From the sequence record NC_100372.1: DNA of 64,000 nucleotides. The stretch is one strand, 5' to 3'. Source of the DNA: a phage. Shown here in pieces: positions 15,580 through 36,651 of the stretch. Each line of letters starts with the position of its first letter. The first letter of the stretch is position 1. A program made the position numbers and the translations under genes. Under the pieces are notes generated by a model. That model searched no databases. It was not told where the DNA came from and worked only from the letters and a program-made list of their open reading frames with translations.

Positions 15580-17699
15580 AAGTTGTAAAACGGGACGGTA
15601 GAGAAGAGGTCTATAACGGAGTTAAGGTAATCAAGGCGGCAGAGTCCGCCTTACTTGAGTCTGGGCATACTGAAGAAGAAGCTTACCGGATCGCTTGTGC
15701 GATTAATGAAGTTGTTGCCAACAATCTACCAACCGACCAGTGCACGATCTCTGTAAAAAATATCCATATCCTTGTTGAAGATGCTCTTATGGATATGGGT
15801 TTAAAATGTGCAGCCAGAGAATATATCCAGTATAGACAGACAAGAGATAATAACAGAGAGGCAGGTGGAAAACTGCTTGCAGATATTAGTGGCTTCTTGG
15901 ATCGAACTTGTGATGAATTTACAAAAGAAAACGCAAATAAGCCCACTAATCATGTACATACTCATCGTGACCTGCTTGCAGGTATCCTTAGCAAACACCT
16001 TGCATCAACACAGATACTGCCAGATCGTGTCTCCGAAGAGCACAACAAGGGATTCATCCATGTGCATGATCTTGACTATCTGATCAGTCCGTTAACAAAC
16101 TGCTGTTTGGTGAATTATCCGGATATGCTGGAAAACGGATTCAACATTGGCAACGCCCATGTCAGTAAGCCGAAGTCAATAGGGGTTGCAACAACAATCC
16201 TCAGCCAAATCTCTAGTGCAGTAGCTAGTGCTCAATATGGTGGTCAGACCATGAGCCATATTGATCATTATCTGGCGCAGTATGCTGAAGCAACCTATGA
16301 GAAGAATCTTAAATTTTGTCAGGAACATTGGTTGCCGGATGCTGAGACTGTTGCAATGCAAATGACGGATAAAGACGTGTTTGATAGTATGCAAACTTTG
16401 CTATACCAAATCAATACGTTAACTTCTGTCAACGGGCAAACCCCATTCATCACATTAAGTTTAGGACTGGATACCTCAATCTTTGGTAGAATGATTACCA
16501 AAAACTACCTGAAAGTCCACAAAATGGGTCTTGGTGAAGAACGTATCACACCTGTGTTCCCTAAGGTGCTGTTCTTCCTGGAGGAGGGTATCAACATGAA
16601 CCCCGGGGATCCTAACTATGATTTGAAACGATTAGCTCTGGAATGCTCTGCAGAGCGGATTTATCCTGACTTCGTATCTGTACCACTAAATAGAAAAGTG
16701 ACAGGTTCAACAGAAGGTAATGTCACAAGCATGGGTTGCCGGAGTTTTCTTAGCAAATACAATGACTTGGAAACAGGAGAGGAGAAATACCTTGGCAGAT
16801 TTAACTTAGGTGTTGTTAGCCTTAACCTACCAATGATTGCGGCAAAAGCTAAAACGGAAGGTGTTGATTTCTTTGCAGTTCTTGACGAGTACTTGGATCT
16901 GGCATACGAGGCTCATCTTGTAAGGGTTAACCGTCTAAAAGGAACAAAGGCAGGGCAGAACCCCATCATGTGGTGTGAAGGAGCTCTTGCTCGCCTGGAT
17001 CCTGAAGAGAGTATTGATAAACTCTTCTATGACGGGTATGCTTCCATAAGTATTGGATATATTGGTGTGTATGAAACCTGCCAGATTTTAGGCAGAGAGG
17101 GAGACAAGTCCTTAGCTCTTGGGATCCTTCAGCACATGAAAGACGCTTGTGATCGGTACAAAAAAGAAAGTGGTCTGGCATTCAGCTTGTACGGCACTCC
17201 TTCAGAGAGCTTGTGCTATAAGGCTGCAACATGTCTAGATCGTGAATATCCTGAAGTGTTGAAGCACGAGCACGAATACCTTACCAACAGTTTCCACCAG
17301 CCCGTGTGGATCAATAGCTCACCTTTTGACAAGTGGAAGTATGAGGAAGGTTTTGCTATGATCTCTTCTGGCGGTAACATTGGATACATAGAAACACCTA
17401 ACCTGAAAAACAACCTGGATGCTTTGGAATCCCTTGTCGATTTCGGGTATAAACACATTATGTATTTTGGTATTAACCAACCTGTGGATAAATGTCTTAA
17501 GTGCGGATTCTCTGGTGAGTTCAGTGCAACAGCTAAAGGCTTTGTATGCCCAGAGTGCGGAAACCATGAAGAGGGAACGATCAGTGTGATTAGACGTGTA
17601 TCTGGGTATCTGTCCAGTCCAAACTCCCGACCTTACAACAAAGGTAAGCAAGCGGAAGTTATAGAACGGGTTAAGCACTACGGCAGCTGTGGTTGCTGA
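15576..17699 (+). CDS. nrdD: Anaerobic ribonucleoside-triphosphate reductase (class III)
   Basis: C-terminal glycyl-radical motif RVSGYL preceded by a CxxC...CxxC zinc site. Confidence 0.9.
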   Translation: MKVVKRDGREEVYNGVKVIKAAESALLESGHTEEEAYRIACAINEVVANNLPTDQCTISVKNIHILVEDALMDMGLKCAAREYIQYRQTRDNNREAGGKLLADISGFLDRTCDEFTKENANKPTNHVHTHRDLLAGILSKHLASTQILPDRVSEEHNKGFIHVHDLDYLISPLTNCCLVNYPDMLENGFNIGNAHVSKPKSIGVATTILSQISSAVASAQYGGQTMSHIDHYLAQYAEATYEKNLKFCQEHWLPDAETVAMQMTDKDVFDSMQTLLYQINTLTSVNGQTPFITLSLGLDTSIFGRMITKNYLKVHKMGLGEERITPVFPKVLFFLEEGINMNPGDPNYDLKRLALECSAERIYPDFVSVPLNRKVTGSTEGNVTSMGCRSFLSKYNDLETGEEKYLGRFNLGVVSLNLPMIAAKAKTEGVDFFAVLDEYLDLAYEAHLVRVNRLKGTKAGQNPIMWCEGALARLDPEESIDKLFYDGYASISIGYIGVYETCQILGREGDKSLALGILQHMKDACDRYKKESGLAFSLYGTPSESLCYKAATCLDREYPEVLKHEHEYLTNSFHQPVWINSSPFDKWKYEEGFAMISSGGNIGYIETPNLKNNLDALESLVDFGYKHIMYFGINQPVDKCLKCGFSGEFSATAKGFVCPECGNHEEGTISVIRRVSGYLSSPNSRPYNKGKQAEVIERVKHYGSCGC

Positions 17700-25873: not shown

Positions 25874-26158
25874 ATGAAACTGTTCGAGTGGTTTAAAAAG
25901 TTTAAATACCAGGCTGTTGCTGTATCGAAATGGACCGTCCGCTGGGTGGACGATGATGGAACACAAATTCCCGGTGATCAGGATACCGGATACTGGGTTA
26001 TGATGGAGAACGGATTTGGGAAAAGGAAGTTTAAATGTGTTGGTGCTCCTACTCTTTTAAATGTTAGAAGTGTGCCAGGGTACAGCACTATGGTTGTTTG
26101 GGAGCTATCCGGTGTTCCTCCTGCTAATGTGCAATATCTGCCAAACCCAGAAAAATAA
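25874..26158 (+). CDS. Hypothetical protein
   Basis: ORF. Confidence 0.5.
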   Translation: MKLFEWFKKFKYQAVAVSKWTVRWVDDDGTQIPGDQDTGYWVMMENGFGKRKFKCVGAPTLLNVRSVPGYSTMVVWELSGVPPANVQYLPNPEK

Positions 26159-33357: not shown

Positions 33358-33573
33358 ATGAAAATAGAAATATTTGGTGGGGCTGACAACACTCGTGGCC
33401 TGATTTACCTTGAATTCGATGAATCTTACCTGCCAGAGGTGTTAAATATAGATGCTGTTGCGGAAGCCCTTGATGTAGACCCTAAAGATCTCTACTCCCG
33501 TGCTGAGATTGATGGTTGGGAAGAGACTCTGAACATTGATTTCAGTGAAGTAGTAGATGAACCTTTGGACTGA
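33358..33573 (+). CDS. Hypothetical small acidic protein (MKIEIFGG start)
   Basis: ATG after AGAGGAG RBS. Confidence 0.45.
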   Translation: MKIEIFGGADNTRGLIYLEFDESYLPEVLNIDAVAEALDVDPKDLYSRAEIDGWEETLNIDFSEVVDEPLD

Positions 33574-33936
33574 CACACAAGTCTGCTTTGCAGGTTTAGC
33601 TGCTCAGCTAAGGTTCTGGAGTCACCTATAACATCTTCCAACTAAATTTCCTACCAACACAGTTACTTACCCACCACACATGACTGTTTGCTTGTTTAGT
33701 GAGCAGTCATCCCTTGACATTCTTGCCTATCTTGATAAAATTAAGTTCTTCTCTTTTCTTTTACCGAGTAATTCGGGTTTTCTGTTCTCTTCGGTTTGAA
33801 GGGGTATGGAGATACACCTGAGTGAACAGGGTGAACAACCGAACCTTTAGCTATGGCATTAGCATGGCGAAGCGGACGGGTGACGAAAGAGGGGCCGGAG
33901 GACACCAGTCACTGCCATATAGTATATGGGTGATAA

Positions 33937-34476
33937 CCTGAAGAGTCTGAATAAGTGTTTAAGTACCAGTCAGAGGAAAAGGTGAATGGTAGCCGAAGGG
34001 GGAGGGGGGTTTCTTATATCTTTAATTTGTATACTTTATATACACTTGTAAACCAATTCAATTAGGATCTGTTTACCACACAAAGTGGATGGAGACAAAT
34101 ATCACCTATTAAACTTGAATTATTTATAGAAAATACCACAACACCGCTTAAGTCTTTGATTTTACACACAAATCTTACAAATATCCTACCTCCATATTTA
34201 ACATACTTGTAACATATTCCATATCCTACCTGCCTGATCAATTTACTCCCACCACATTCCCACATTTTCCCTGTCTGTACTACCCCACCCCCGCCGGGAG
34301 TCCCGTCATATCTGGCTTTCCAGCAAATATCACACCCACAAATATCATCACCTGAAGAGGGTTTCATCCCATAATACCTGCCTTACCTGAAGAGCGCTTC
34401 ATACACCACCTAAATTTTTTAATTGACCCCTCCCCGCCGCCGGAGAGGTTGGCTTTTCCCACACAGGCCTGAAGAG
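33937..34476. repeat. Four dispersed copies of CCTGAAGAG (about 33937, 34351, 34386, 34468)
   Basis: Read directly from the sequence. Confidence 0.6.
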
Positions 34477-34491
34477 TCAGCCAGAAATATC
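34097..34491. repeat. Five copies of AAATATC(A/C) in a CA-rich stretch
   Basis: Copies near 34097, 34179, 34325, 34340, 34485. Confidence 0.5.
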
Positions 34492-35023
34492 TGAACAGGT
34501 CCAGTTATGCCCCGATTTTGTGCTTGTCCTACAGGAGTGCTGCCCTGTCAGGAGCCGGTAGCGACTGGAGTGCTGCCAGGCGGACGGAATGGGAATACTT
34601 CTCATTTTTATAATAATTCTCAAATATCGAGGCAGTGAGGCAAATTAATAGGCCAGGCCGTTCACACAGTGGCACAACATTTGCAATCTATCTTGTGGGA
34701 GTGAATGAGAATACCTATCATTGTGAGAATGGTTATCATTACGGGCAATTTAACATAATACCTATTATGCGCACCACTGGCGATACATACAGGGATTGAT
34801 AACATGGGTTACTGTTTACGCACATAACAATTATATTTATTACTATTTGTGTGGGATATAGTTAGCAACCAATAGATTAGATATTGACCTGCAGACTTCT
34901 GACCGTCCAGACGTCTAAACGCCCACACAACAAGGATTATACATACATTCCTGAATGTAAACAGGGCCGCAAAAAATGCTACCATACCAGTTTGTAAATT
35001 TTTCATGCAGCACTTGACAAAGA

Positions 35024-35107
35024 GGAGAAAAACTTGTCTGACACAATGTGACAAAATTGCCACTTTTGACACTTTTACCTTTGACACAATATGACACAAT
35101 AACGGCT
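35024..35107. repeat. Array of TTGACA/TGACAC hexamers including three TGACACAAT
   Basis: Six TGACA(A/C) within 85 bp. Confidence 0.6.
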
Positions 35108-35136
35108 GTTACTATTCCATATCTCACTGTTTACGT

Positions 35137-35190
35137 ATAGACTGTTTACGCCTGAATAGTTTACGCCCAAACTGTTTACACAGAGATGAT
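35137..35190. repeat. Tandem CTGTTTAC(G/A) iteron-like repeats x4 (further copies near 34812 and 35583)
   Basis: actgtttacg, actgtttacg, tagtttacg, actgtttaca in series. Confidence 0.6.
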
Positions 35191-35202
35191 AAGCCATGAC
35201 AT

Positions 35203-35432
35203 TCGTTTGCATGAAAACAATTAACAAGTTAATAATATATGACATAATATAAAAGCAGGGCAACTATTAGAAGATCTATAGTTGCCTTGCTTGTTATGTC
35301 ATGATTAACTAAATACAAGGCAACTATGATCTGAATAATAGATTGCAGAAAAACTATCACGGGGGTGATTGTTACTGCTTTTATATTATGTCGCGACTCC
35401 GTCGCGCCATGCCATTCGTTTGCATAGTTGCC
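35203..35432. repeat. Nested symmetry block: 20-bp direct repeat, 15-bp perfect inverted repeat, four GGCAACTAT copies
   Basis: Direct repeat GCCATGNCATTCGTTTGCAT at 35203 and 35406; inverted arms GACATAATATAAAAG at 35251-35265 and 35378-35392; GGCAACTAT at 35269 and 35329 with reverse complements at 35288 and 35424. Confidence 0.65.
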
Positions 35433-36039
35433 TTATTGTTACAGGTAAAACAATTACATTATTAATTATTTCTTATCTTTCTCTTAGTCATCTAATGATT
35501 CCAGTCAGTATAGTAATGTACAGTAAACATTAGACGACTAAAGATTTCTCTGTGTATAATAACTTATCGTGACAATTTCGAACTGTTTACGAAAAATGTT
35601 GACACCTGAGCTGATTTATGTTATGCAGTTTACACGAATAATTATTTTATGCAGGTATTGACTATTCCGTTATTCTGTGGTTGGAATAAATACTTTGCAG
35701 ACTATAGAATGGCGTGCGTACGTGAATTCTGAGATCTGGCGGCTATAGTTATACTCGATTTTTCGCGTAGAACACGCTTTCGATGCTGTGTAAGTGTATG
35801 ACTTATAAAGATTTTTAGTTGTTGACAAGATATTGGAGATGTGCATCAGGTTAAAATTTGTGCAATAGCGGCATTACGTGCACTTTTGGGAGAGAAAACG
35901 GGTAAAAATGGCCCTGCTACCACACAATGAAAGATTATGCAATGGTTATTTTCCATGTATATTTGTACAGTATGTGGGATTGATGGCTAGTCAATTATTC
36001 CACTTGCCAGGTAGGGCCGTTTATGGTAGGAGAAGAGCA

Positions 36040-36068
36040 GACAAAAAGAAAGGGGCCTTTAAGCCCCT
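36040..36068 (-). terminator. Intrinsic terminator for the leftward block (AAGGGGC-loop-GCCCCTT with U-run on the minus strand)
   Basis: Hairpin followed on the minus strand by TTTCTTTTT, just downstream of gene 36088..36507. Confidence 0.5.
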
Positions 36069-36087
36069 TGATAATTCAGTTAAGAAA

Positions 36088-36507
36088 TTATAATGATTCG
36101 TATATTTCAAAAATCCGATTTGCCAGGTCGTTACGGTAGCGGAATTTTTCATCGCGCTTGATCATTAAATCCTTATAGCCGTACTCTTTAAGCACTTCAT
36201 TAACTTTATAGCGGCATACCTGCATATTATCTTGAGCGTCACCAATAAACTTGTTGCTGTGGTGCATTGCTTTAATTTCTTCTTCCAGGACCAGGGCAAC
36301 TACCCGGACCGGATCAAGCTGGTAGGCGGTAACATCTATGCGGCATTGTAGACGGCTTTTAACGTCTGCCACCGGATATACTGCAACCTCTTCCCCGTCA
36401 ACATTGACAATAATTAGTTTACCATCGATTTCGAATCCTTTCGCCGCCGGACCGTGACAAAAAGCGTTATCAAAGCTATATGCCGGATTATCAGATTTAA
36501 TGTTCAT
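36088..36507 (-). CDS. Hypothetical protein
   Basis: ORF with upstream promoter. Confidence 0.5.
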   Translation of the reverse strand: MNIKSDNPAYSFDNAFCHGPAAKGFEIDGKLIIVNVDGEEVAVYPVADVKSRLQCRIDVTAYQLDPVRVVALVLEEEIKAMHHSNKFIGDAQDNMQVCRYKVNEVLKEYGYKDLMIKRDEKFRYRNDLANRIFEIYESL

Positions 36508-36556
36508 GGTGTTTTTACCTCTTAGTTAATTTTCTTACAACTTCCCTTCAAAAAAG

Positions 36557-36585
36557 AATATAGCAAAACTGCCGATCCCTGTCAA
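36557..36585 (-). promoter_or_regulatory. Sigma70-like promoter on minus strand (TTGACA-17-TATATT)
   Basis: Reverse complement of 36557-36585. Confidence 0.45.
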
Positions 36586-36651
36586 CAAGGGATAGCATAA
36601 TTTTTATGTGATCAAGGGGCTTTATCGCCCCTGACCATGCAACCTGTTGTA

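Follow-up and report, generated by a model that had tools for sequence, protein, structure and literature searches.

The 64,000-nucleotide stretch of DNA analysed here (record NC_100372.1; hereafter the window) comes from a Vequintavirus, an rV5-like myophage of E. coli, and this report concerns a block of nested repeats and hairpins between its positions 35193 and 35434. The block sits in about 1.7 kb (about 34367-36088) that is poor in open reading frames (ORFs), with plus-strand genes to the left and minus-strand genes to the right. The GC minimum of the window (0.353, at 35-36 kb) falls in this stretch, and the cumulative GC skew peaks just to its left, at ~34 kb. Across the Vequintavirinae this 'non-coding' region spans ~1.5-2.5 kb and has been left blank since 2013. 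The rV5 genome paper draws it as a 'non-coding' box, ascribes the change of skew to the switch of transcription direction, and notes that bidirectional terminators were expected there and that none was found (PMC3606486). Positions 34600-36100 of the window match 119 phage records, nearly all from Vequintavirus, with identities of 80-99% that reach at least 90% in 112 records.

The frame of the block is an 18-nt inverted repeat (left arm GACATAATATAAAAGCAG) whose arms are 100% complementary and have 116 nt between them. The arm occurs at this single locus of the window, with no other copy even when three mismatches are allowed (0.06 expected). The 9-mer GGCAACTAT is present exactly four times in 64 kb, at 35259 (+), 35278 (-), 35319 (+) and 35424 (-), all within 35259-35432, against 0.53 copies expected, and none of 100 shuffles reached four. 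Sites 1 and 2 stand head to head with a 10-nt spacer and, together with site 3, lie within the inverted repeat; site 4 lies outside it and overlaps the second of two direct repeats. These direct repeats are identical at 19 of 20 positions and start 213 bp from each other, which leaves 193 bp in between. The rest of the genome (~71 kb), supplied from phage ECP26, which is 99% identical at the overlaps, adds one further GGCAACTAT and no extra inverted-repeat arm or direct repeat.

Folded from arm to arm, the block has stability z scores of -9.2 on the plus strand and -11.2 on the minus strand, and within 34360-36200 no other part is strongly structured (lowest sliding z, -9.7 on the plus and -5.9 on the minus strand; -9.7 and -5.0, respectively, over P1). 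The inverted repeat would form a closing helix around three hairpins, P1, P2 and P3, with a GC-rich hairpin and site 4 on its 3' side (Table 1). P1 has a predicted energy of -25.7 kcal/mol (z = -7.5) and is followed on the minus strand by UUUUAUAUUAU; P2 is the degenerate palindrome GCAACTAT-N10-ATAGaTTGC. The four GGCAACTAT sites permit the alternative pairings 1:2, 2:3 and 3:4, of which the minimum-energy fold uses 3:4, and TTATGTCAT (35294-35302) is a third possible partner for the left arm. An extended hairpin of ATGACATAA with TTATGTCAT, which is part of the 209-nt minimum-energy fold, is broken by T-to-C changes in Gotham, in HeinrichReichert and in an IMG/VR contig; because these substitutions break the pairing, we take the extension not to be selected.

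A previous sequence-only reading of this DNA had noticed much of this symmetry and judged it unlikely to arise by chance, a judgement that the shuffles and fold scores bear out. Its four GGCAACTAT sites and its enclosed head-to-head pair are as it described them. Its perfect 15-bp inverted repeat, with arms about 113 bp apart, is real and is a subset of the 18-nt repeat. Its direct repeats do flank the block; they are not fully identical over the 20 bp, are not 203 bp apart, and the first starts 10 bp to the left of the reported 35203. Two of the checks that it proposed also went its way: GGCAACTAT is confined to the block except for the one copy in the ECP26-supplied remainder, and the block is conserved in relatives, as described below.

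Table 1. Features of the block and its surroundings in the window, and equivalent inverted repeats in other Vequintavirinae
Feature or genome	Position	Strand	Description
Direct terminal repeat	34579-35038	no strand	~460 bp; placed by homology to Gotham
TGACA(Y)AAT-type repeat array	35039-35100	+	begins at first base past the terminal repeat
CTGTTYACR iteron-like repeats	35119-35180	+	15-bp spacing
Direct repeat 1, GCCATGACATTCGTTTGCAT	35193-35212	+	conserved in relatives; left end-point of the FV3 deletion
Left arm of inverted repeat	35241-35258	+	putative 5' strand of closing helix: A-tract and GCAG
Hairpin P1	35253-35292	+	sites 1 (35259-35267) and 2 (35278-35286), 10-nt loop
Hairpin P2	35320-35346	+	site 3 (GCAACTAT) pairs with ATAG(a)TTGC, one bulged base; read from sequence
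Hairpin P3	35345-35389 (hairpin proper 35352-35373)	+	GGGG loop, closed by GCAG/CUGC, then UUUUAUAUUAU; -12.3 kcal/mol
Right arm of inverted repeat	35375-35392	+	putative 3' strand of closing helix: CUGC and U-tract
GC-rich hairpin CGCGAC-TCC-GTCGCG	35392-35409	+	contains motif TGTCGC-N7-9-TCGCGCCA
Direct repeat 2, GCCATGCCATTCGTTTGCAT	35406-35425	+	right end-point of the FV3 deletion
GGCAACTAT site 4 (ATAGTTGCCTT)	35424-35434	+	external copy of P1 3' arm; can pair with site 3 or 1
KPP-1 (Mydovirus)			21-nt perfect inverted repeat; 164 nt between arms; 308 bp inside terminal repeat
PVP-SE1 (Seunavirus)			18-nt arm; 183 nt between arms
LNA4 (Seunavirus)			17-nt arm; 231 nt between arms
pEp_SNUABM_01 (Henunavirus)			21-nt arm; 173 nt between arms
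Hena1 (Henunavirus)			22-nt arm; 204 nt between arms; 260 bp inside record-annotated terminal repeat
A73 and UPEC06 (Septuagintavirus)			16-nt arm; 73 nt between arms

The block is found in 117 of the 119 matching records. Over the 152 nt from arm to arm, 21 distinct sequences show variation in one of 86 paired columns against 20 of 66 unpaired columns (Fisher p = 1.2e-7). The left arm is invariant in these 21, and the GGCAACTAT sites are invariant in relatives. Insertions and deletions fall in loops and linker without exception: the P1 loop shows a 1-nt deletion, the linker between P1 and P2 a 33-nt insertion, and the loops of P2 and P3 insertions of 1 nt. Between sites 1 and 2 the spacer measures 9 or 10 nt and varies in sequence, the bulged base of P2 is A or T, and the P2 loop varies between invariant stems. 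In EPFV3 a G·U pair of P1 becomes G-C; an apparent occurrence of the block at 'two places' in that phage is merely the self-match of its perfect palindrome. The same pattern led us to reject a protein-coding origin for the ORFs that cross the block, 35229-35360 (-), 35343-35465 (+) and 35369-35533 (+), since relatives carry loop insertions and deletions, including the 1-nt deletion in P1 and the insertions in P2 and P3, and the variation tracks stems and loops, not codon positions. A scan of IMG/VR with the P1 palindrome returned only five contigs, all Vequintavirus.

Two larger insertions occur in and beside the block. The 33-nt linker insertion (at 35293) is present in rV5, A135 and LL12. 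A 17-60-bp insertion just left of the left arm (35236/7) is seen in many relatives, among them rV5, Murica, A135, LL12, HMD-6, APCEc02, S127 and V18 (for example L004 1590-1633, and L011), and it carries extra hairpins, including a terminator-like CACCCCTTCGGGTG followed by TTTCT on the plus strand.

An equivalent element is present beyond this genus. We sampled six lineages of Vequintavirinae (Vequintavirus, Septuagintavirus, Mydovirus, two Seunavirus lineages and Henunavirus), reaching the other genera through the published terminal-repeat coordinates of KPP-1, the annotated non-coding gap of PVP-SE1, and blastn; the neighbouring 87-aa protein, used as an anchor, reaches only Septuagintavirus. 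Each of the five other lineages has, at the same genomic place and in different sequence, a perfect inverted repeat of 16-22 nt whose arms lie 73-231 nt apart around hairpins. The arms follow a loose consensus across genera, yWATAAmm and then a GC-rich inner part; their sequences differ, and their complementarity is perfect in every genome. The two Erwinia phages, too, have different arms that are perfectly complementary. The Mydovirus/Seunavirus type alone was found by blastn in 72 records, from phages of Klebsiella, Salmonella, Cronobacter, Erwinia, Proteus, Enterobacter, Raoultella and Escherichia.

Further shared features lie inside and just 3' of the inverted repeat. The motif TGTCGC-N7-9-TCGCGCCA follows the right arm in Vequintavirus, Septuagintavirus, Mydovirus and Seunavirus and is absent from the Henunavirus loci; scanning IMG/VR with it gave chance matches only, none with the extended motif. 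In all lineages, the 3' arm of an internal helix is repeated 30-40 nt 3' of the right arm (ATAGTTGCCTT in the window, GATAACGCGAAC elsewhere). The H2 stem, GYGTTATCGTGGC / GCCACGATAACGC, is kept from Klebsiella phages to Erwinia phages. Wherever the terminal repeat has been mapped, the distance from it is also similar, roughly 200-310 bp (~200 bp in the window and Gotham; Table 1 for Hena1 and KPP-1). These comparisons indicate that all six lineages sampled have a structured nucleic-acid element at the same place, and that the block is its Vequintavirus form.

Some loci show additional repeats upstream of the element. In Seunavirus, Mydovirus and Henunavirus, a palindromic motif, ATGGTTTGTCAACCAT, and a hairpin of variable sequence lie 60-150 bp upstream (L148 ~25975-25995; L149, L153, L155 and L156), and the conservation of this palindrome suggests that the structured region may reach further left in these three genera. 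In PVP-SE1 the arm has a third, direct copy (GCGACACTATAACAC) at 26043-26057 of L148, which lies 92 bp upstream of the left arm. With TTGACT in front of it at 18-nt spacing, this copy looks promoter-like, the -10 element lying within the arm motif.

Covariation was measured in six distinct sequences of the Mydovirus/Seunavirus type, from Klebsiella and Salmonella phages. In their consensus fold of 76 pairs, 97.1% of cells are paired, whereas slid controls reach 21-45%. Both partners have changed in eight pairs; four of these belong to the closing helix, where pairing is intact but for a single cell at the outermost position. The covariation score of 0.120 compares with 0.063 in shuffles, none of 500 shuffles reaches it, and the signal agrees with the independent arms of Henunavirus and Septuagintavirus. 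In the same alignment, the G·U pairs fall on the plus strand, as does one change from A-U to G·U, and the predicted plus-strand fold is the more stable one in seven of seven lineage representatives, by 2.6 to 12.5 kcal/mol. Selection acts on the base pairing of the block, whose symmetry marks a conserved and functional element, and folding, as modelled, favours the plus strand. The covarying helices, the wide separation of the arms and the one-strand wobble bias together argue for a folded single strand rather than for protein half-sites or a duplex cruciform; they point to a plus strand that folds as RNA or, less likely, as single-stranded DNA.

This bears on several of the functions that the sequence-only reading had offered. 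One was a multimeric DNA-binding site, and an array of protein-binding sites (operator, initiator or terminase small subunit) with GGCAACTAT as half-site would explain why four identical 9-mers fall within 174 bp with one more in the whole genome, and why they are invariant in relatives; the adjacent iteron-like arrays also suggest protein binding in the region. We nevertheless regard such an array as improbable. The stems are kept, whereas the loops, the one-base bulge in the P2 partner, and the spacing (N9 or N10) and sequence between sites 1 and 2 all vary; other genera keep the helices and not the motif, with compensatory changes in every helix and arms up to 231 nt apart; and the wobble bias is strand-specific. 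A cruciform in duplex DNA is likewise unlikely with arms 73-231 nt apart. Nothing supports site-specific recombination: phage FV3 lacks exactly the DNA between the direct repeats and retains one repeat copy, which looks like slippage across a hairpin between direct repeats rather than programmed excision. Since FV3 does without it, the block can probably be dispensed with, provided that the old record of that phage is free of a (cloning) artefact.

The arrangement in FV3, together with the direct repeats that flank the block elsewhere, would also be expected of a small non-autonomous mobile element, with the direct repeats as target duplication, the inverted repeat as terminal repeats and FV3 as the empty site. 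We rejected this origin as extremely improbable, because the block is single-copy in a genome of ~137 kb and its counterparts hold the same position in other genera. Moreover, 28 and 13 bp separate the arms from the direct repeats, transposition does not typically leave a 20-bp duplication, and presence in 117 of 119 records, with the same architecture in diverged sequence in five other lineages, does not suggest mobility.

The position of the block relative to the genome end raises a different possibility. The Gotham record annotates a terminal repeat at 1-459 and 136567-137025, and both copies align to 34579-35038 of the window. Reported lengths are 459 bp for Gotham (PMC7471380) and 458 bp for EdH4 and HdK5 (PMC6563267), and a 514-bp repeat has been published for KPP-1. 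By homology, the physical ends of this phage's genome map to 34579-35038, within the 'non-coding' region, and since the direct terminal repeat (DTR) ends at 35038, homology mapping places the block ~200 bp inside the left end of the genome. Exact TGACAYAAT has four sites in the window, all inside 35039-35248, and the six window matches to CTGTTYACR all lie inside 34812-35591. The copy number of both arrays is hypervariable among close relatives, and the distance from DTR to block shifts with it. The arrays could be binding sites for terminase or an initiator.

Other observations concern the DTR itself. Most Vequintavirus database records are not cut at the position of the terminal repeat. Its right boundary motif (TTGACA, a purine-rich run, TTGTS) is recognisable in Vequintavirus, Mydovirus and Seunavirus. 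Immediately left of its left boundary, the direct repeats ACAGGAGTGCTGCC and ACTGGAGTGCTGCC lie 33 bp apart at 34531-34577, a segment that is indel-prone, with identities of 0.49-0.73 among relatives.

The block could thus act in cis as a single-stranded structure of plus-strand DNA, either in duplication or processing of the terminal repeat at the concatemer junction or in replication initiation beside the iteron-like arrays. It lies close to the terminal repeat wherever this is mapped, short repeat arrays abut that repeat in a T7-like manner, and TGACAYAAT is common to the cut site and the inverted-repeat arm. The FV3 deletion between direct repeats is, in addition, the classic outcome of a hairpin formed on a single strand during replication, and the hairpin intermediate at the T7 concatemer junction (Chung and Hinkle 1990, as cited in PMC4281155) provides a precedent. 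We still consider a cis-acting DNA structure unlikely. FV3 is viable without the block (a cloning artefact in its record being possible), the distance to the terminal repeat varies with array copy number, arms so far apart cannot extrude from a duplex, the TGACA similarity is absent in Mydovirus and Seunavirus, and the strand displaced in standard staggered-nick duplication of the repeat would exclude the region of the block. The same facts qualify two further proposals of the sequence-only reading. A packaging target is right insofar as the block adjoins the packaging end, and an essential packaging signal is hard to square with FV3 and with a distance that varies over ~200-310 bp; an essential origin meets the same two difficulties.

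Both strands of the block carry termination-like signals. On the minus strand the P1 stem is followed by UUUUAUAUUAU, an arrangement annotated as a terminator in the Murica and Alma GenBank records; on the plus strand GCAG-P3-CUGC is followed by UUUUAUAUUAU, and the same site was called terminator-like in Gotham. A GC-containing stem directly before a U-rich tract is therefore present on both strands. The loops are not of the compact 3-8-nt kind, as 116 nt lie within the closing helix and 10 nt in the P1 loop, and a scan of the window with standard criteria called no terminator in 35200-35440; the fold of the block would explain why terminator finders missed the bidirectional terminator expected here. 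In Mydovirus and Seunavirus, a conserved plus-strand hairpin followed by AUUUUUAUUU stands just 3' of the element. At its other convergent junction (ECP26 L158, ~16600-16650) the phage has a simple bidirectional terminator with flanks of the same TATAAAAAG...CTTTTTTAT style.

Our favoured reading, to which we give a probability of roughly 45%, is that the block encodes a structured RNA on the plus strand whose A-tract/U-tract closing helix also terminates transcription. The RNA would be made from the plus strand, with transcription running away from the genome end. Plus-strand transcription would be halted by the closing helix and P3 together with the UUUUAUAUUAU next to them, and that of the minus strand by P1 with its mirror-image U-tract. 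A stable RNA of ~150 nt with paired ends would remain, and the terminal-repeat region and the opposing genes would be shielded from read-through.

Several points weigh against this scheme. Predicted sigma-70 promoters upstream of the left arm are inconsistent between relatives in position and quality: the best prediction in the window (TTAACA-16-CATAAT) is split by the insertion point 35236/7, and the candidates in Septuagintavirus and PVP-SE1 end in TATAAG and TATAAC and fail the criteria of the tool. A transcript from this predicted promoter, if it is real, would begin within the left arm, and the full closing helix could not form. Nothing is encoded downstream of the block on the plus strand. 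The arms of Mydovirus and Seunavirus are only moderately U-rich, so that termination by the closing helix is not clearly family-wide, and a simple hairpin suffices as a terminator, which does not account for the conserved internal complexity. The covariation test depends on a small sample of six sequences, folded single-stranded DNA tolerates G·T pairs too, and our literature search found no transcriptome of a Vequintavirinae phage. Since the promoter evidence is weak and inconsistent, we infer rather than show that the folded molecule is RNA, that transcription terminates here and that a discrete RNA accumulates.

Termination alone might be all that the block does. As a compound bidirectional terminator or transcription insulator, it would stop read-through from both convergent gene blocks ahead of the terminal repeat and the repeat arrays, keep it from entering the opposing genes in antisense, and yield an RNA product without function of its own. 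The block sits at the convergence point where the rV5 authors expected such terminators, its arms are an A-tract and a U-tract beside a GC stem as in the simple bidirectional terminator of the phage, terminator-like hairpins are found on both strands, and FV3 can dispense with it. On the other hand, both gene blocks already have upstream canonical terminators. One of these, a minus-strand terminator at 36050-36069 (AAGGGGCTTAAAGGCCCCTT then TCTTTTTGTC), lies just downstream of a 139-aa gene (36088-36507), so that leftward transcription would already be stopped ~660 bp ahead of the block. A simple hairpin would be enough, yet a four-way junction and the H2 stem are kept; the wobble bias is confined to one strand; and the U-tracts after the arms are poor in Mydovirus and Seunavirus. 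We therefore see termination alone as a lesser prospect: the conserved internal junction, the H2 stem and the 3' motif exceed what a terminator needs, which favours a structured RNA module that includes a terminator.

A related suggestion, which we make tentatively and consider rather doubtful, is that the element represents a kind of functional phage nucleic acid, linked to the genome end, that has not been described before: either a trans-acting structured RNA or a plus-strand DNA structure with a part in regenerating the short terminal repeat from concatemers. As a trans-acting RNA it would bind a phage or host protein, counter a defence system or assist packaging. The motif TGTCGC-N7-9-TCGCGCCA, the H2 stem and the external duplicate of the 3' arm, with its alternative pairing, would then serve specific recognition or switching. 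A literature search found no description of the element, and in the sources searched only the P1 hairpin had been annotated, as a terminator. Searches of Rfam 15 with 33500-36600 of the window gave only chance-level matches (E above 1), and the five loci of other lineages gave nothing at E up to 1. We accordingly file the element, as the best fit to the comparisons above, as a putative new family of structured noncoding element (RNA and terminator module) in Vequintavirinae.

For therapy and biocontrol of E. coli, Salmonella, Klebsiella, Cronobacter and Erwinia, the rV5-like phages (Vequintavirinae) are some of the broad-host-range phages in commonest use. Their 'non-coding' region holds an element that is supported by covariation, matches no RNA family, and is found in 117 of the 119 Vequintavirus records as well as in 72 or more records from other genera. 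Should it prove to be an RNA, it would be a new family of phage noncoding RNA; if it acts as DNA, it bears on the long-unsettled matter of how phages with short terminal repeats regenerate them. For the engineering of these phages, the block flags a site prone to hairpins and deletion.

Three observations concern the surroundings of the block. To its right, ~600 bp poor in ORFs (35445-36050) are 90-98% conserved in relatives with no significant predicted structure, and this stretch may hold promoters. The 139-aa gene beside the non-coding region is absent from FV3, HMD-6 and APCEc02, and its presence is uncorrelated with that of the block. Finally, 18 records labelled 'Campylobacter phage' share ~79-96% identity with this region of an E. 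coli Vequintavirus; A135, the one that was inspected, carries an UNVERIFIED flag, and the host labels of the 18 look wrong.

Comparison with known systems places the block between several of them. As in iteron origins (lambda ori, plasmid iterons), tandem short repeats (here CTGTTYACR at 15-bp spacing) stand beside an AT-rich dyad region; unlike such origins, the block itself is not iterated, its helices covary as in a folded strand, and the switch in GC skew coincides with the change of transcription direction. Like a trp-leader-type attenuator, it has four alternately complementary segments and three predicted alternative helices, one of them before a U-tract; it has no leader peptide or downstream gene, its 3:4 loop measures 94 nt, and its alternative helices are predicted only. 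In T7, short repeat arrays lie beside the terminal repeat. The T7 concatemer junction resembles the present locus in its short direct terminal repeat, its abutting arrays and hairpin-capable sequence a few hundred bp away. In contrast to T7, the block is on the other side of the repeat, has a multi-branched fold instead of a simple palindrome, and appears dispensable in FV3.

The simple bidirectional rho-independent terminator of ECP26 is alike in combining A-tract, GC-rich stem and U-tract into a perfect inverted repeat, and in its position between convergent genes with a hairpin and U-tract on both strands. The block differs from it by a 'loop' of 116 nt (73-231 nt in other genera) with three or four conserved covarying hairpins, by extra conserved motifs (TCGCGCCA, direct repeats) and by its one-strand wobble bias. 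The pRNA of phi29 is a structured RNA of 120-170 nt near the genome end, whose paired ends close a multi-helix junction, which is conserved by covariation and which is essential for packaging; to our knowledge, pRNA is known only in phi29-like, protein-primed phages. The phage studied here differs in having an ordinary terminase and a natural deletion variant. The proposed RNA of the block is nonetheless like pRNA in its size, its position near the genome end, its closing helix and its conservation by covariation over sequence.

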